The notes beneath the pieces are model-generated. The model saw nothing but the letters and a program-made list of their open reading frames with translations. It had not been told where the DNA came from and made no database searches. From positions 1 to 8,605 of the IMG/VR virus record IMGVR_UViG_2737471841_000007: a stretch of 8,605 nt of DNA. One strand, 5' to 3'. The position numbers and the translations under genes are program-made. Numbering within the stretch: position 1 is the first letter of the stretch; every line of letters starts with the position of its first letter. Origin of the DNA: a virus (taxonomy: Duplodnaviria; Heunggongvirae; Uroviricota; Caudoviricetes). Of the stretch, positions 1 through 8,605 are shown piece after piece.

Positions 1-2010
1 TTACCAGTTTGTACTTATAAATAATCCATATATAATCCGTCTATAATTATCCAGTGCATCACTTGGATCTACTGATAGTGCGAATACGGCGCAATCACCT
101 ATACCATCATAGCTATTGGTCATGAGGCCTGAAAACCTAAATGAAGACCCGGCAGTTACTTCTGTAGTATATCTAAGGGCTTCTGTATAACCACCATCTG
201 TAGTTGAGTACACTTCAAATGATGCTGGTTTTAGTAAGGGATTCCCATAATTCTCAAATACTGCGAATCCAGTGAAATATTTTAATAAACTTTTAGTTGT
301 AACAAGTCTGCTAAATGTCTTATTAAAACCTATTCCAGATGTGTCGACTCCAGGTAGTGTTGTTCTCAGTGGGGTTTCTGACGACCCGGTCATTAATCTT
401 ACAGGAGCTGCGCCTCCACCAAGCCAATTATCAATTGTATTAAGGGGATCTTTATATGTTTGTATAGCATTTAAGCACCCTAAAGGGTATTGAACCCGTC
501 CTGGATATCCTCCAACCCCTCCAAATAGAATAGGCTCGGTTCTATAGATTTCACCTTTATCAGCATGATTTACAAGTTCTTTTACTAAGGTTTGGTACTT
601 TACTTCTTTTGCGAGCGTAGTGGTGAAGCCATTGTCCCAGCAGAATGCTGCGAAATCTCCATTGCCTGTTTTTCCGAAAACTCGGGCGGCAGATACAATC
701 TGATCAACATCAAAACAATATGACCCATTTATACCCTCCACTGGATTTGTTTCGAATTGAGAAAAAGTTTGCACGACAGGAATGATTCGCGCAGAACCAG
801 TTACCATCATGCATCCACCAATATCAGTCCTCATTTTACCAAGATCTTTATCAACCCTCTCTTGAAGAGAGCCTGATGAATAGTACATGCTGTAGCTATT
901 GACAAGAAAAACGTCATAATTCCTTGAGAATTTATATTCCCAAGGAGTATTGACCCACATGTAATCTACTGAAAAAAGCTTTTTACTCGTAAGTTCTCTC
1001 AGTGTTGCAATCATTTGGTCCTGATCGGCAACGCTGATTCCTCTACTGGCTGGTTCGTCAACTACGCTATATCCAATGCAGTTTGAAAAACTGTCACACC
1101 GACCAACAATCTCTGCAACAGTTCCTTGACCATGACTAGATTCAATATTTGTATTAATAACCACGTTCAATCCAGCAGATAGGCAATTATTGAGAAGCTT
1201 GGGCATGGTTCCGTCCATGTCGACAGTACCATTATTATCAAAATAGCAGTAATGAATAACGGTATTAAACCCCAAGGACTTTATTCTCAACATTTCACAA
1301 AAATCGTATGCTGTCCCTACGTATATGCCTCGGAAAAAAGCATTATCAGGCTTAGCATAATTTGAGGTAACAACAGCATTTGGTATGCTTATTCTTTGCA
1401 GATCTAAAGTTAGTTCTCCAACATATCTTTGCCCTTTAGTATTTATGATTTTAGTAACTTTATACTTCTTACCCTTGATCCCTATGATTTCTTTGCCAGT
1501 ATCAAATGCAGCCTGAATGGCGTCTGACCAATCATCATCAACAACAAGATTTGCATAATCTTCGATGTAAGCATATACATCACTACGCTTATTAAGGTTG
1601 TCTATATCAGTCTGCTTTGCGGCCCCATTTACTAAATCCACACCACCAGGTGCAGCAAGCTCCTGTCTTAACTGATCAGGATCGTACTTCAGCACATTAG
1701 GAAAATAGAATTGCTGAGAACCATACGCATCATAAACAGCCATAGAATGGCCTTGCACGGTAACGAATTTGGCAATCTGTCCGTTATATACCGGATAACC
1801 AGCAGCGTTAATGATGATTGGTTGAGAAACAGGAACGTGAGAGCCGTCTTCGTTCTCCACATAAACCTGAATCTGGTTTTCAGGATTTACCGGGTCAGTG
1901 TCAATTTTACCTATATAAATTTTACCATTGGCTACGGCTTTAAAAGAACGTGCCATAGTGAAGAGTTGCGAAGGCATTGATACGATCACATTGGCTGTAA
2001 TGTCTGTCAT
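1..2010 (-). CDS. Tailspike protein: P22 gp9-type N-terminal particle-binding domain fused to an unrelated receptor-binding (possibly enzymatic) domain
   Basis: 669-aa ORF, ATG at 2008..2010 with GGAG about 10 nt upstream on the minus strand, stop TAA at 1..3. The first ~115 residues ([42 protein letters not shown]...[15 protein letters not shown]....NVLKYDPDQ) match the P22 tailspike head-binding domain as I recall it. The rest does not resemble the P22 beta-helix sequence. It is the last gene after mnt, as in P22-like late operons. Confidence 0.85.
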
Positions 2011-2145
2011 TTAATTTGCTCCAGATACAAGGAATCACCGCAGCATGGCTACGGTTGGCATTTGTTACATACCGAAACGGTACTATTGTTGATTTGTACA
2101 GTAGGTTTTACGATGCCATTCCACCCAATTGGTGAGGCATCAAGG
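2011..2145. promoter_or_regulatory. Divergent control region between tailspike and mnt, with a candidate operator palindrome
   Basis: 135-bp gap between divergent start codons. It holds the inverted repeat TACCG-aaa-CGGTA (2069..2081), the near-repeats TTGTTACA (2062..2069) and TTTGTACA (2093..2100), and the RBS GGTGAGG (2131..2137) 8 nt before the mnt ATG. I could not find a sigma70 -35/-10 pair with canonical 17-bp spacing by eye, so promoter positions are unassigned. Confidence 0.35.
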
Positions 2146-2406
2146 ATGTACAGTAAATACGACGAGGCGCAGTTTCACTTGAGACTTCCGCATGAACTTC
2201 ACGCGAAAATTAAACAGCGCGCGAAGATGAATAACAGGTCGCTGAACTCAGAGATAATTGCAGCGATTGAAGAATCATTGGCTAAACAAAGCTCTGCATC
2301 AGTTTACATTGACGATGCAGAGCGTATGGCAGAACAACAATCTGATATGGTTAAGAAAATTGTCTTTGATACGCTCAAGAAGCTATATAAAAAAGACAGC
2401 AGATAA
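2146..2406 (+). CDS. mnt: Mnt-like ribbon-helix-helix repressor (Arc/MetJ superfamily)
   Basis: 86 aa from ATG 2146 (MYSKYDEAQFHLRLPHELHAKIKQRAKMNNRSLNSEIIAAIEESLAKQ...DDAERMAEQQSDMVKKIVFDTLKKLYKKDSR). It aligns along its length with P22 Mnt as I recall it (..FNFRMP.EVREKLKFRAEANGRSMNSELLQIVQDALSK...NDAERLADEQSELVKKMVFDTLKDLYKK). The ORF-track start at 2062 is a TTG with no RBS, whereas ATG 2146 has one. The gene is opposite in orientation to the late operon, as in P22 immI. Confidence 0.85.
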   Translation: MYSKYDEAQFHLRLPHELHAKIKQRAKMNNRSLNSEIIAAIEESLAKQSSASVYIDDAERMAEQQSDMVKKIVFDTLKKLYKKDSR

Positions 2407-2495
2407 CCATCCGTTACGGAGGATTTATGCACAGAGATATGCTGAATATTGCGTTCTACATATTTGGTTTTTGCACGTTCCTGGTGTTTGCGAAG

Positions 2496-4775
2496 CTATT
2501 CTGACAGCGCATCAGACTTAGACCCCTGAGTCAGAGCGTTAATGGCCTTTTGTGCCTGCTGCATGGCTTTCTCGAACACTGTTGATCCGCGTGGGGTGTT
2601 TGCCATTCGGAGCATTGCATTTCTGAATGGCTCGCTCTCATAGGCGCGAGTAAGAAGTCCATAGCTTACTGCTGCGCCAGTTGTTGCAGGGTTCATTGCC
2701 GTCCCATACCCAATAATGAACGGGATGGTTTGCTGCCCTGTTGGTGTTGTTACTGCTGCTTTTGCAGCCTGCTGCGTGGATTGCAGGTAGTTTTTCAATC
2801 CTTTCAGATAAGCGGCTTCCTGACCTTTAAATGTGATGCCAGTCTGGTTTTGCAGGATATTAAGCTGCCGAAGGAACTGGTCAGGGGATCCGCCAGATTT
2901 CTCCATCGCCTTTCCAATGATGCCATTGCGCATTTGCTCCCTGCCAACACGACCAACTGAGTTATACAGCGTCTTAATTTCAGATTTGTTCTTGCTGAAT
3001 AGCATGTTGTTGACAACTTCCGGCGTCAGATCGCCTTTCATGAGAACATTCTTCAGCCTGGTATTCTTTAGTTTCGCTGCTTCGTCAGCATAGACGGCAT
3101 TGGCCTGCTGATATTTACGGAGAGTATCGTTGCCAAGATTCTGACCAATGGCGCCATTGATATCGTCGGTCATTGCCTTGTAAACGCGCTGAATGGCAGC
3201 ATCGGAACGGTTTGGTAACACTGGTCGTTCCCCCTTCACGTCCATTCTGAACTGGCTGCGCAGATCGCTTAATTGCTTCAAATCCAGATTTACCGGACCA
3301 TCAGGACCAGCATTGCGAATAAGCTCATCACGATAGGATTGAAGTTTTGAAATCGTCTCGTTATCAGCGACCTTACCAAGCTTCTGCAGGTTAGATATCT
3401 CAGTATCAATCTGCTGAATTGCTCGCACAGGCTGAATGTTTACTCCAGCCATAGCATTCTGAACCTGCTCCAGTCGATTACCGGCAGCACGACGAATTCC
3501 TGATGTTTTCGCTTTAAGGCTGTCAATAACAACTGCCGGATCGTACTCGCCGAATTTATCAGCAAATCTCTGCACCAACTGGCTTCTCGCTTCCTGTTGC
3601 GTTGCTCTCATTCCGCTTGTGCCAGCCAGAGGGATATTTTCTGCTGTAGTCTGCGCCATTTTCCCGACGCGGGAAGTAGGCTGTAACAGGTCTGTGGTGT
3701 GCAGAGGCACTCCTTCACGCTCTGCAAATCTGATAGCTTGCTGCGCTTCTGGTGCAATAGCACCACGAACGCCACGATAAGCAGCGCCTAATCCACGTCC
3801 GGCAGCGTTAATAGCGCCGCCAGCCAGAACGCCAACGCCTAAATCGGTAGCGAGTGCTTCCGCATCATCTTTCGCACTATTTGCAGCAAGTGACCCGACT
3901 GCGTTTTCAGCGAGAAGGCGAGTTGCACCCTGAGCGATTCTACCAGCGAGTGTTGGTGCCTGTGTTGCCGCTCTCTCAATGCCAGCAGGAGTGAGGTAAG
4001 GCAATGCCTCAGCAAATACCCTGCCCTCTGTAGTTTGTGGAGTCAGCGCGCCTTGCTGAAGGCCAAAGTCCTGCTCTAATCCCTGCGTTGTTACTCGTGG
4101 CGCTGGGTGATATGTCCCATCGCCAATTCCGAGTTTACCGCCAGCCCATGCCGCCGCGCTTGTTACAGCATCGGCAACTGATGCAGGTATGTTTGCCACG
4201 TTCACGCCAGCCTGCACCAGTCCGCGACCAGTTTCAGCCGCGGCATTGCCAAGGTCGGAAATGAAACCTCCTTGCTGCTGTGGCGCTGCCTGTGTACTTT
4301 GCTGTACAGGCTGTTGTGTAGCTTGATTCTTCCTAGGGAGGTATTCATCAGCTTGCTGGTTGTGCAGACTCTCCGCATATGCAGTGGCATCGTCAGGATT
4401 GTCGAACATACCAAGATGCTTTCCCGTCCTCATGAAGTTATCAATAGCTTCATCATCAGACATAATGCGACCATCATCACTAACGGTAGGAATCAGCACC
4501 TCTCTACCATCTATATTGGTAGACATGCTCCGCACAGTGCTAATGCTGCCATCAGAGTTTTTAACAACAGGCCGATTGTGAATGTCAATATTACCCTTCT
4601 CTAGCAGACCTCTAGGGTAAGCAGAGTAAAACGCTTGTTTTGCCTGCTCTGCATTTTCTCCGGCTTGCGGGGCAACGACTTCATTGAAGTATTGCTCCTG
4701 AGCCTGCGCTTTTTGTTCTGGTGCTAACGCCTGATACTGTGGAGAGGCGATAACATCTTTCCATGCTTTAGCCAT
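2496..4775 (-). CDS. Putative virion ejection / DNA-transfer protein (P22 gp16-position homolog), intact
   Basis: 759-aa ORF with ATG at 4773..4775, GGGGTGA 5 nt upstream, and start overlapping the upstream stop (TAATG) which suggests translational coupling. It is Ala/Gln/Gly-rich and low-complexity, typical of podovirus ejection proteins, and is the last late gene before mnt and tailspike. Function is assigned by position and composition only; no motif was recognised. Confidence 0.5.
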   Translation of the reverse strand: MAKAWKDVIASPQYQALAPEQKAQAQEQYFNEVVAPQAGENAEQAKQAFYSAYPRGLLEKGNIDIHNRPVVKNSDGSISTVRSMSTNIDGREVLIPTVSDDGRIMSDDEAIDNFMRTGKHLGMFDNPDDATAYAESLHNQQADEYLPRKNQATQQPVQQSTQAAPQQQGGFISDLGNAAAETGRGLVQAGVNVANIPASVADAVTSAAAWAGGKLGIGDGTYHPAPRVTTQGLEQDFGLQQGALTPQTTEGRVFAEALPYLTPAGIERAATQAPTLAGRIAQGATRLLAENAVGSLAANSAKDDAEALATDLGVGVLAGGAINAAGRGLGAAYRGVRGAIAPEAQQAIRFAEREGVPLHTTDLLQPTSRVGKMAQTTAENIPLAGTSGMRATQQEARSQLVQRFADKFGEYDPAVVIDSLKAKTSGIRRAAGNRLEQVQNAMAGVNIQPVRAIQQIDTEISNLQKLGKVADNETISKLQSYRDELIRNAGPDGPVNLDLKQLSDLRSQFRMDVKGERPVLPNRSDAAIQRVYKAMTDDINGAIGQNLGNDTLRKYQQANAVYADEAAKLKNTRLKNVLMKGDLTPEVVNNMLFSKNKSEIKTLYNSVGRVGREQMRNGIIGKAMEKSGGSPDQFLRQLNILQNQTGITFKGQEAAYLKGLKNYLQSTQQAAKAAVTTPTGQQTIPFIIGYGTAMNPATTGAAVSYGLLTRAYESEPFRNAMLRMANTPRGSTVFEKAMQQAQKAINALTQGSKSDALSE

Positions 4776-5398
4776 TAATCACCCCATAGTGAAGAAAAGT
4801 TACTGCCAGTAGTAGATTGTTGCCCTGGCATATTCTGCACCGGCTCCTGATAATCAAACTGTTTTTTAACAGTGCTCAACTTGCTTTCAAGCTGATTTCT
4901 AATCTTTCCGATAGAGTCACGAAAAGCCTTTTCACTCATTTTTGGGCTTAGGGCACCAACCGCATCGGATAATTTTTTACCCTCAGCATCTGAAAGAGCG
5001 CCCATACCCTTCAGGGACTGCACCATAGGGAGGAAAGTTTGAGCTTTAAAGGTGTCGAGCCTTGCTTCAAAGTTAGCCGCATCAGAGCCAGGAACTGTCG
5101 GAAACGCTGAGCGAATTCCTACTGCTTTTGAAAGGCCGGGGCTTTGCTCTATCTCGTTGAGAGAATCAAGCGCGGTGCTGAACGTATCAACTGCACCCTG
5201 AGCGGCGGCCTGCCTGTCAGCGCGGGCTATGTCAGCCTTTTGCCGAACATCTGCCTGTTTCTGCTTTAACTCTTCAAGCTTTAACTGATTGCTTTCTCTG
5301 GCTATCTGTCTGTCCAGAGCCTTTTCTTGTAATTCTGCTCTTTGTATTTCGCGGGAAAGCGCAGCATTCTGTGCGCTGATGTTCTGTCCACGTACAGG
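4775..5398 (-). pseudogene. 3' remnant of an ejection-protein-like gene (gp20-position), no start codon; left side of a deletion junction
   Basis: The reading frame that ends at TAA 4775..4777 stays open upstream for about 207 codons, to an in-frame TGA at 5399..5401. It contains no ATG, GTG or TTG before the ATG at 5026 (the 83-aa track ORF). The product (..[57 protein letters not shown]..) is Ala/Gln-rich and looks coiled-coil-like. It is coupled to the downstream 759-aa gene. Confidence 0.55.
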
Positions 5399-5490
5399 TC
5401 ATTTGTCGCCTCGGTTCTGGCTTCATCGCTCGCCATCCAGTCCGCGTCAAACTTACACAGAATGGAATTGAGTCTGTTTTCGTCGGCCAT
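5302..5490 (-). pseudogene. Portal protein gene remnant: about 33 conserved N-terminal codons, then out-of-frame sequence and a stop
   Basis: ATG at 5488..5490 sits directly after the large-terminase stop (5491..5493), with GGAG 7 nt upstream. [33 protein letters not shown] matches the P22 portal N-terminus as I recall it ([34 protein letters not shown]). After that the ORF reads [29 protein letters not shown] and stops at 62 aa, where a portal should run about 700 aa. The downstream remnant is in a different frame. Confidence 0.7.
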
Positions 5491-6990
5491 TTAAGTTCTC
5501 CGTGCGATGGGCCTGATTGGGGCTGGTATCTTTTTCTCTTTTGGTTTTTTGATGTCGCGCATCATTTTGGCGAAGCGGCGCATCATGTATGCATAGCGAA
5601 CGGCTGAGAGAACGTCGTCGTTAAGCTTGACGATCTTCCCGTTTTCATCACGGTGATAGAGGCGAAACTCCTCAAAGAATGGCTCACAGGTGTTGAATAC
5701 TTTGAAGCGACCATCGAGCATCATGTCGCGCAATTCAGTGATGCCAGGCTCAACAGCATTACCGCCATCAGGCCATGTCGCATGCTCCTGCAACATCATA
5801 AATCCAGCGTCTGCATACTGCCCTTTGAGCTGCTCACCACCGCCCTTCTCGTGCTGGTTTCCGTCATGAGGCCATGCGGTTGGCACTTTATGCGCCCATG
5901 ATTTAACAGCTCCCCATGCCTGAACCGCTGTTTTTTCTTTCGCCTTCCACACGCGTGAAACGTAGATTGTGTCTGCGTCCTTATCCCACCAAAGCTGAAC
6001 CTGAGCCTGTGGGTGATCCCATCCGAAATCCATCCCGCCAATCACGTAGAAGTGATCAGGACACTCGAACGGCTGACACTTAATAGTCTCTTCCGGTATC
6101 TGGAAGATTCGACCACTACCCATCGTAGGAATACCGCGAGCACGCGCCTCTCTCTCATGCTCAGGATAGGATGCGATGATTTGCTCTTTCTGCTCGTCGG
6201 TGTAGTGCTCAGCGTCATAGATGGTCATGTTGACCACTTTCTGCGACTTGCTGGGATTCTTCAGGAACTTGGTAACAACGTCAGACATCCCCATCAGCGG
6301 GGTAAACGTCAGAATTGAGAATTGCCCGTATTTGTTGGTACGGGTAAGACCTTCGCCATAAATGCTGTATGGTGGCTCTTCGTCAAACCACACGCCGTGG
6401 ATTGTGTCACCCTGCCAGCGAGCGCGGCCTTGCGAGTATGGCTTGAAGTAGCAGATTGAAATGCCATCTTCAACGCCATCAGCCGTGTGATGCTTAACCA
6501 GAAGGTGATCAACAAGGTTCGGAAAGAAAGGAGACTTCTTCCAGCTAATAATGTCTTCTTTCGGTATGGAACCGTAGCCAGGCTCATCATTCTCTTCGAT
6601 ACGACCGCACAGGATGCGTTGAGTCGTTTTGGTTACAGTCTCGTTTGTCTCGCCACCAATCCAAAAGACAACGGGCTCATAGAAACGCTTACCTTTCCAC
6701 TCCCCACCATATTTACCATCAGCCGGATAGCCTTTTGTTCCCGGATAACGCCCGGTAAGGTGAAACGCGACTTCAGCAGCCCCAGTAAATGACTTACCAA
6801 GCTGGTTACCAGCCATAAAACAGCGCTCTGGATAGTCATGCCCGGCGTCGATGAACTCACGCTGTTTGCTGTATGGCGTAAATTCATATAGCAGGTGTGT
6901 GTTCCGGTAGTTCTCTTCTTCTTCGAGTAGCTCGAGCAACTCGATTTGCTCTTCGTCGCTCAGGTTATCAAGAATCGCGTCCAGTTCCAC
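5491..6990 (-). CDS. Terminase large subunit (P22 gp2-like)
   Basis: 499-aa ORF with Walker A P-loop AGNQLGKSF near the N-terminus and acidic residues in the C-terminal half consistent with a nuclease domain. Start is GTG at 6988..6990 with AAGGAG 11 nt upstream. It overlaps the small-terminase 3' end by 23 nt. Length and N-terminal sequence match P22 gp2 as I recall it. Confidence 0.9.
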
Positions 6991-7462
6991 GGTTGAATAG
7001 CTCCTTGATACGAGAGCGCCGCTTATCGCGATCTCCCTTATCAGGTGTCACGTCTTCAACTTGCGACTGCTCTTTGAGGCCCAAATCACGGGCGATGATG
7101 TTAGCGTTGAGAAGGTCAGCGGCTGCGCCAGAGAATTTCTGGTCGTAGATGATGTCTTCCGCTCGTGATGTGACGTCAGAAAAACCTTCCATTGACCGGA
7201 AGGTTCCCCATGTTTGTCTGGTGATATCAAGGAAGGTACACAATCCTGAAATAGTCATGGCTCGCATCTTAGGGACATTAGCCTTAATTATTTCTCCCTG
7301 ATATGAAAATACCTTACCCTCCCATAGCGGGTTATCATCAGCCCACTCGAAGTATTCACAACAAGCAGCCCACAGCGCCTCAGGCGATTCGAATTTAGGA
7401 TTTCGCCCATGACTACTGCGGGCCTCCCAAAATCGGTTGCCCTTTGGTGCTGCCATATTCAT
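6968..7462 (-). CDS. Terminase small subunit (P22 gp3-like); true start probably the second ATG at 7454..7456 (162 aa)
   Basis: The product (M)[37 protein letters not shown]...[60 protein letters not shown] matches my recollection of P22 gp3 at both ends. The middle (residues about 40-100) diverges. GTGAG lies 6 nt before the second ATG. Confidence 0.9.
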
Positions 7463-7491
7463 CTCACTTAGTTGTTATTTCAGGCTGAGCA

Positions 7492-7734
7492 TCATGCTCC
7501 GGTAGTGAACAGGTCTAACGCTTCCTTCGATTTACGCACCGCTTCAAATGTGCGGATCGTGATATCTGAATTAGCGCCGCCTGACTGGAAGTGAATTTTG
7601 AATAGCTCAAGCTTCAGTTCGTCAGTGCCAATGAATTGAAATGCTTCTTCTGCGGCTGCGTTCTGGTTCATTACCAGTTTGTAAATCTCTAGCTGGAATT
7701 TCTGTTCTTCAGTCATGGGAATAATCTCTGCCAT
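7492..7734 (-). CDS. Small conserved hypothetical protein in the position of P22 ORF80, just upstream of terS
   Basis: 80-aa ORF with ATG at 7732..7734 and GGAG 6 nt upstream. Same strand and position (between rha and terS) as ORF80 in P22-like phages. No motif recognised. Confidence 0.65.
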   Translation of the reverse strand: MAEIIPMTEEQKFQLEIYKLVMNQNAAAEEAFQFIGTDELKLELFKIHFQSGGANSDITIRTFEAVRKSKEALDLFTTGA

Positions 7735-7755
7735 TGTTGGCTCCGTTTATCCGTT

Positions 7756-7781
7756 AAAAGGGATATCAGTTAAGTTATCCC
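7756..7781 (-). terminator. Weak candidate intrinsic terminator (hairpin plus T-run) just upstream of ORF80
   Basis: On the minus strand: GGGATA-acttaactga-TATCCC followed by TTTT (6-bp stem, 10-nt loop). The stem is short and only half GC, so this is speculative. Confidence 0.2.
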
Positions 7782-8086
7782 GTGTAGGGTATAAGCCATT
7801 ATCGAGACCACTCATTGAATGGCCTCTGCAATAACCGATGTCTTTCCATCAGTCCGCCACCACAAAGAATCTTTTTTGCCATAAGGCAGGAGGTTCATCT
7901 TTCAGTGGCTGCCAGTGTTATTTCCCCACTTACTGGCTTGGGTTGCTTCGTGGTACTGCCGTAACTGGTGGTGCACAGATTTAGTTAAATCTGTTCTCGC
8001 CTGAACTATCTTTTACATACCCGGATTGTGGGGATGTAAATCACGGTTTCATTATCAAGCCCACCCGTAGATGGGCTTTGGAATGG

Positions 8087-8605
8087 TCACTTTGGCAGCC
8101 CGGGGATCGATATTTGCGCCTGCTGCTCAAGCCTTTCGATTCTTGCTATGAGTTGCGGTTTTTTGATCCTGCCCCAGCGGTTCAGCAAGCGTCCTGACAT
8201 ACTGGCAACATCCTTTTCCTTCATGAACTCCAGCATTAACTCGTTGTGCTCTCTTTGGTATGAGTGAGCCATCTCCATCAGCCTGTCACGCATCCAATTA
8301 AATGCTTTGATAAACGCCTCTTTGATGGCGGCAGCTTTTTTGCCGGTAAACGACATGATGATGTACATCGCGCCGTCTTTGGAAATTTCATATTCAACAT
8401 ACTGATTACCCTTGTGTTCATAGGTAACCCGCGAAAAGTTGCTGGTTAGAAATTCATCCGAACAGTCTAGCTTTTCGATTTTCTGAATGATGTGGTGATG
8501 CTGCTTGTCGAAGTAAGCTGCTACCTTGCGGGAGGTTGTGATCACGCGATCACCAGAAACAACCACCATGTCCCGGAAATCGAGATTAGCCAATTGATGA
8601 TTCAT
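8087..8605 (-). CDS. rha: Rha-family phage regulatory protein
   Basis: 172-aa ORF, ATG at the window edge (8603..8605), stop TGA at 8087..8089. The N-terminal segment ..VVVSGDRVITTSRKVAAYFDKQHHHIIQKIEKL.. fits the Rha-domain pattern (V.T.SR.VAE.FGK.H..V.R.I..L). Position upstream of ORF80 and terS matches P22 orf201/rha. Because the start coincides with the window end, no RBS is visible. Confidence 0.7.
   Translation of the reverse strand: MNHQLANLDFRDMVVVSGDRVITTSRKVAAYFDKQHHHIIQKIEKLDCSDEFLTSNFSRVTYEHKGNQYVEYEISKDGAMYIIMSFTGKKAAAIKEAFIKAFNWMRDRLMEMAHSYQREHNELMLEFMKEKDVASMSGRLLNRWGRIKKPQLIARIERLEQQAQISIPGLPK

Follow-up and report, generated by a model that had tools for sequence, protein, structure and literature searches.

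A probable single deletion that removes the virion assembly genes of a P22-like prophage at the lambda attachment site of Escherichia coli

CurroJimenez_Bas106 (PQ850599.1, hereafter Bas106) is an intact P22-like phage in which 9000 bp, holding ten further complete or partial virion genes, lie between a point near the start of the portal gene and a point about midway through the gene for the homologue of P22 gp20. In Shigella phage Sf6 (NC_005344), genes 12 and 13 are the homologues of P22 gp20 and gp16. Here we describe an 8,605-nucleotide stretch of viral DNA (Caudoviricetes; positions 1 to 8,605 of IMG/VR virus record IMGVR_UViG_2737471841_000007), referred to throughout as the window, in which the Bas106 sequences on either side of this interval, 98.3% and 98.4% identical, keep their order and orientation and the two points are adjacent. 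The window is a P22-like phage late operon with nothing between the large terminase gene, terL, and the ejection-protein genes, and its arrangement very probably results from one illegitimate-recombination deletion within the late operon of a lambdoid prophage, P22-like (Sf6/Bas106-like) and integrated at the lambda attachment site (att-lambda) of Escherichia coli. Apart from the missing interval, the window differs from Bas106 in the C-terminal part of gp16 and the receptor-binding part of the tailspike. Likeness to Sf6 is seen downstream of the truncated gp20 homologue, where the gene is gp13-like (94.5% nucleotide identity), whereas Sf6 has another terminase, a divergent portal N-terminus and a gp13 without the 94-aa insertion of the window's gp16.

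Direct BLAST alignment with Bas106 resolves the locus into two blocks. The left block, window 7456..5393 on the minus strand, corresponds to Bas106 1..2064 (98.3%) and comprises terS, terL and the first 98 nt of the portal gene, and the right block, window 5394..4273, corresponds to Bas106 11063..12184 (98.4%) and comprises the 3' part of the gp20-homologue gene and the start of the gp16-type gene. The blocks overlap by 2 bp, the dinucleotide TA at window 5394..5393, and the parental sites have nothing else in common. In a three-way alignment the window reads GACCTGTA up to the junction and CGTGGACAG beyond it, the left parent reads GACCTGTATTTTAGCC and the right parent CCAGATACGTGGACAG. Relative to Bas106 coordinates 9000 bp are absent. 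A megablast query of window 4600..5700 (minus strand) likewise splits at a single point, its positions 1..308 matching terL/portal and 307..1101 the gp20/gp16 homologues, and no record among phages and 5,426 complete E. coli genomes spans at least 80% of this query in one place. The lost interval, read from the annotated gene order between the two points in Bas106 and Sf6, runs from portal codon 34 onward through scaffold, coat, a small open reading frame (ORF), gp4, gp10, gp26, gp14 and gp7 to gp20 codons 1-226; essential virion genes are missing from the locus, the points that bound portal to gp7 being adjacent in the window. The portal gene supplies 98 nt and the right block, which lacks the first 678 nt of the gp20 gene, opens on a whole codon; the fusion is therefore out of frame. 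An earlier, sequence-only reading of this DNA had placed a breakpoint within 5385..5401, estimated the missing block at 9-10 kb and proposed a nucleotide alignment to intact relatives; that alignment yields two collinear blocks of ~98% identity which meet at 5393/5394 and stand 9.0 kb apart in Bas106. Its list of lost genes from portal to gp7 also stands, but 'most of gp20' overstated the loss, which takes 226 of 431 codons, about half.

On the portal side of the junction, terL ends with TAA at 5493..5491, a GGAG motif is present at 5501..5498, and a short ORF, the portal stub, starts with ATG at 5490 and stops with TAG at 5304..5302. Stub residues 1-33 are identical to the N-terminus of Bas106_0003, a P22 gp1-type portal of 721 aa that can be aligned over its full length with PDB 3LJ5, the P22 portal structure (E = 0). 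The stub consists of 32 portal codons plus TA, followed by gp20-derived bases, and its final 29 residues are wrong-frame gp20; residue 33 (Tyr) is kept because TA and the right block's first base respell the Tyr codon. Portal sequence is limited to stub residues 1-33, a small part of the full portal fold (~720 aa; reference proteins 721-725 aa). The Sf6 portal was also compared with the stub by BLASTP and gave no alignment; its N-terminus is divergent and the Sf6 terminase is different, and Bas106, with its P22 gp1 type, is the apt comparison.

On the other side, a second frame follows a TGA at 5401..5399 and runs for 207 codons to a stop at 4777..4775, which overlaps the ATG of a 759-aa gp16-type gene (TAATG). 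In protein sequence this frame and Sf6 gp12, the P22 gp20 homologue, agree at 98% over gp12 residues 226-431 (E = 2e-146), and in phrog_2534 the frame matches only positions 229-435 of 435, the C-terminal 47%. Its first ATG/GTG/TTG is at 5026, where an 83-aa ORF opens, and the gp20-derived tail of 205 codons is startless; a full-length ORF of the gp20/Sf6 gp12 family with a start codon is absent. The 83-aa ORF has no Shine-Dalgarno motif or recognisable ribosome-binding site upstream, and its translation is doubtful. The sequence-only reading had described both sides of the junction, i.e. a portal start after terL with about 33 conserved codons and a stop at 62 aa, then a frame after the TGA at 5399..5401 of about 207 codons to 4775, lacking a start before 5026 and coupled by TAATG, and each of these features is seen here. 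Its single-deletion interpretation also survives two checks: the stub is identical to a portal N-terminus, and intact relatives carry a full-length portal, not a short gene, at the stub's position.

The genes and gene fragments of the window, with the evidence for each, are:

8087..8605, minus strand: Rha-family gene (gene calls and profile matches).
7492..7734, minus strand: DUF2560 gene (gene calls and profile matches).
6968..7456, minus strand: terS, intact P22 gp3-type small terminase gene (phrog_606, E=7.5e-72; Pfam GP3_package on the called gene; collinear with Bas106 from position 1).
5491..6990, minus strand: terL, intact large terminase gene, 499 aa (ORF; Terminase_6N/6C on the called gene).
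5302..5490, minus strand: portal stub ORF, 62 aa (portal-derived at 5490..5393, gp20-derived and out of frame at 5392..5302; phrog_14911 positions 1-39 only).
5393..5394, minus strand: deletion junction, with the 2-bp TA common to both parental sites (BLAST block overlap and three-way alignment).
4775..5392, minus strand: 3' remnant of the gp20 homologue, codons 227-431 plus stop (Sf6 gp12 and phrog_2534 matches).
4775..5026, minus strand: 83-aa ORF, the sole part of the remnant with a start codon (ORF list; gene call in the Logan assemblies).
2496..4775, minus strand: intact gene for a gp16-type DNA transfer/ejection protein, 759 aa (phrog_770, E=5e-233; Pfam Phage_P22_gp16).
2146..2406, plus strand: intact Mnt/Arc-family repressor gene (Pfam Repressor_Mnt and Arc; gene calls).
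1..2010, minus strand: intact tailspike gene, 669 aa, its head-binding domain of P22 type and its C-terminal part unclassified (Pfam Head_binding at residues 1-113, E=1.8e-66).

The junction is reproducible. An exact look-up of the 62-aa stub returned four contigs, from GCA_000798295.1 (JUDJ01000044.1), GCA_003773445.1 (RNPZ01000038.1) and the Logan assemblies of SRR29037622 and SRR8095932, which are independent data sets processed by two pipelines, that of the NCBI submissions and that of Logan. Wherever the four overlap the window (8605, 7635, 8605 and 5527 bp) the identity is 100%, and the contigs pass unbroken through the junction into unique chromosomal DNA. With 2 bp in common at the parental sites and the same junction in four assemblies, the locus lacks the marks of an assembly collapse, which would be a repeat of k-mer length or more at the join and a junction that differs between assemblies. 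The junction is absent by megablast from the 5,426 complete E. coli genomes, and its 26-mer has no exact match in the species-representative genomes of genome_contigs or in viral_contigs; it marks a rare lineage, represented by the four contigs. Contig ends were located at L003:1-331 and L005:1-598, upstream of window position 8605, one of them within an Rz lysis gene (Pfam Phage_lysis), and the breaks of all four assemblies in this region suggest a repeat present in other lambdoid prophages of the same genomes.

Continuity into the chromosome identifies the integration site. Beyond the tailspike the DNA continues through a 374-aa ORF, the lambda att core GCTTTTTTATACTAA and then CTTGAGCG to ybhB, bioA and bioB. 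The core is exact (L003:10846-10860) and lies ~1.9 kb past window position 1 on the tailspike side, the bacterial B' arm adjoins it, ybhB is 90 bp away, and the ybhB-bioA-bioB flank is ~99% identical to E. coli chromosomes. A lambdoid prophage whose virion genes are P22-like therefore occupies E. coli att-lambda, and the DNA seen here is its right end, with the tailspike beside bio. Integration at the att site is thus seen on the tailspike side, and the contigs end before the early region, int and attL. The 374-aa ORF (L003:8949-10073, minus strand) lies outside the window, between tailspike and attR, and profile searches of Pfam, PHROGs and NCBIfam gave no match for it. Its position is the one that gtr or oac lysogenic-conversion genes occupy in P22-like phages. 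The region of the ORF is also present in E. coli strain CUPF06, where it is annotated as a 945-bp hypothetical-protein gene.

A repeat scan of the junction found no insertion sequence (IS) element, direct repeat or inverted repeat, as the sequence-only reading had claimed, and the locus thus lacks what an IS- or repeat-mediated deletion would show. Local alignment of the 120 bp around the parental sites scored 10 against 9.5 ± 1.5 for shuffled sequence, revealing no extended or imperfect homology. With no repeat, IS element or extended homology at the junction, the event is therefore assigned to illegitimate recombination. E. coli alternative end joining (A-EJ), which is dependent on RecBCD and LigA, is reported to use microhomology of 1-9 nt, with 1-3 nt seen at junctions (bioRxiv 10.1101/605246). 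The window junction resembles such A-EJ and other illegitimate-recombination deletions in being clean, with a 2-bp microhomology and no inserted DNA, and the 2-bp overlap is compatible with A-EJ, although it is no proof of pathway. Microhomology of at least 2 bp occurs at 16% of random junctions in the genome (P = 0.16), and a single junction is too little to assign the pathway. The idea of Chi-limited RecBCD resection is unsupported, because there are no Chi sites in the window or in Bas106 1..18000.

The genes retained around the deletion are intact. Every listed gene of the window except Mnt/Arc is on the minus strand, and a promoter/terminator scan of 4400..5700 gave counts equal to shuffle expectation, with no site on this coding strand. 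The gp16-type gene is preceded by its own Shine-Dalgarno-like motif, GGGGTGA, and is mosaic: its 5' end is Bas106-like, and from ~4277 onward it resembles Sf6 (94.5%); the insertion relative to Sf6 gp13 (282 nt, 94 aa), which is also found in Bas106, lies at window ~4277..4615. In the tailspike, PDB matches cover only residues ~1-141 and phrog_8280 only residues 1-260, and the C-terminal ~400 aa (residues ~260-669, window 1..1230) have no sequence match in Pfam, PHROGs, NCBIfam or the PDB. Motifs spotted by eye in this part, among them GFNTV and VVDEP, suggest that it is a glycosidase of the TIM-barrel type and not a beta-helix; modelling of residues 120-669 with single-sequence AlphaFold2 gave no usable structure (mean predicted local distance difference test score, pLDDT, 32.8). 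The gene records of both NCBI assemblies lack an entry for the intact 759-aa gp16-type ORF, and one gives a tailspike of 430 aa instead of 669 aa where the DNA is identical to the window. The missing gp16 and the shortened tailspike may be annotation or record artefacts around the deletion.

Divergence from Bas106 bears on the age of the event. TerL is identical in protein sequence to its Bas106 counterpart, with 32 synonymous and 0 nonsynonymous changes in terL, and the gp20 remnant has 13 synonymous and 3 nonsynonymous changes, a ratio of nonsynonymous to synonymous change (pN/pS) of 0.07, with the same figures against Sf6. Such a low ratio indicates that nearly all divergence of the remnant accrued under purifying selection. 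The deletion therefore looks recent, as the flanking genes are intact and the dead gp20 fragment keeps the signature of this selection.

Comparable losses can be identified in other E. coli P22-like elements. CUPF06 (NZ_CP182174.1, L007:11982-16597) also has a P22-like prophage at att-lambda, and its Mnt-tailspike region is 98.8% identical to window 2414..1, but there a truncated terL pseudogene directly abuts a gp14-like DUF2824 gene, and gp16 too has become a pseudogene. In strain ETEC4068 and about 14 related porcine ETEC strains (L008:8034-11265) a P22-like remnant with several internal junctions occupies the argW/intS/torI site, which in K-12 holds the cryptic prophage CPS-53/KpLE1. In one junction of the remnant a partial terS meets a partial gp4, and in another a partial gp26 runs out of frame into the 3' portion of the gp20-homologue gene. 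The gp20 breakpoint of this porcine group is 37 nt downstream of the window's (Bas106 ~11100 versus 11063/11065). CUPF06 and the porcine group resemble the window in that the head/tail-assembly block is internally deleted while Arc/Mnt and the tailspike end are kept. Their breakpoints differ from the window's, and their deletions are independent of it. These deletions agree with published surveys, which report preferential loss of portal and capsid genes from incomplete prophages and enrichment of tail-fibre genes (PMC7744054).

A break-and-join event from portal codon 33 to codon 227 of the gp20 homologue, between ends that have TA in common, removed ~9.0 kb. Joining would have been by RecA-independent end joining or by replication slippage, and the event could have either preceded lysogeny, in a phage genome, or followed integration. 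The late transcript would then encode TerS, TerL, a 62-aa nonsense fusion peptide, ~0.5 kb without a credible start, gp16 and the tailspike. Deprived of portal, scaffold, coat, gp4, gp10, gp26, gp14, gp7 and gp20, the element would neither assemble nor stabilise a virion and would be a locked-in defective prophage.

A different view is that the deleted element has been kept for a function, either as a terminase-carrying, helper-dependent, satellite-like element packaged in the capsids of a co-resident P22-like phage, or through host domestication of gp16, Mnt and the tailspike. We consider this very unlikely. The intact state of terS, terL, gp16, mnt and the tailspike gene is in keeping with it, as are the retention of Arc/Mnt and the tailspike end in the CUPF06 and porcine remnants and the enrichment of tail-fibre genes in cryptic prophages (PMC7744054), but the intactness of the retained genes is explained by recency, and the pseudogenes of terL and gp16 in CUPF06 mean that no consistent retained set includes these two genes. 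The junction, moreover, interrupts two ORFs, shifts the reading frame and leaves part of a gene behind as dead sequence, which marks it as accidental and not as an evolved architecture, and it is limited to a rare lineage of four contigs. Nor does the locus have the make-up of a phage satellite such as a phage-inducible chromosomal island (PICI), as both sides of the junction are phage gene fragments, out of frame and ~98% identical to an intact phage. If the view were true, with the defective prophage mobilised in the capsids of a helper or its late genes kept by the host, the repeated, independent loss of the head block from P22-like prophages of E. coli would reflect selection, not neutral decay.

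Joining of two P22-like prophages, or of a prophage and a remnant, by chromosomal rearrangement is highly improbable. E. coli genomes often have several P22-like places, up to 4 per genome, and the best matches of the two flanks do differ, the left flank matching HZ41/Dewey best and the right flank Sf6-like prophages. However, Bas106 by itself matches both flanks at ~98%, and split best matches are ordinary lambdoid mosaicism; the flanks are in the same orientation and natural gene order, a deletion between two prophages would take out all the chromosomal DNA between them, and the four assemblies give no sign of a rearranged locus. It is barely conceivable that the morphogenesis block is present in the genome and was collapsed or skipped by the assembler. 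In favour of this, all the assemblies are apparently fragmented drafts or short-read assemblies, with contigs of at most 36.5 kb. Against it, the junction reads the same, at 100% identity, in the four independent assemblies of both pipelines, the contigs run continuously through it into unique chromosomal DNA, and parental sites with 2 bp in common and shuffle-level alignment offer a de Bruijn graph no repeat to collapse on.

Set against the single-deletion reading itself are four points. Each of the four contigs breaks off within 0.3-0.6 kb of the Rha gene on its upstream side, leaving the left half of the prophage beyond them. The 2-bp microhomology is within chance and does not identify the joining pathway. 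The size of the deletion could differ by a few bases or a small indel from that calculated, as Bas106, ~98% identical, is a stand-in for the parent, and the loss of virion production is predicted from gene content.

The very probable single deletion described here has direct consequences for annotation. The locus should be treated as a defective prophage, and its 62-aa and 83-aa ORFs should be labelled pseudogene fragments, from the portal gene and the gp20-homologue gene respectively, instead of hypothetical proteins. The junction also provides a precise, lineage-specific marker. The importance of the finding beyond annotation is small: it is a clean example of a minimal-microhomology deletion inactivating a prophage, and in E. 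coli P22-like elements it represents ordinary prophage decay, a well-resolved new instance of a familiar process.

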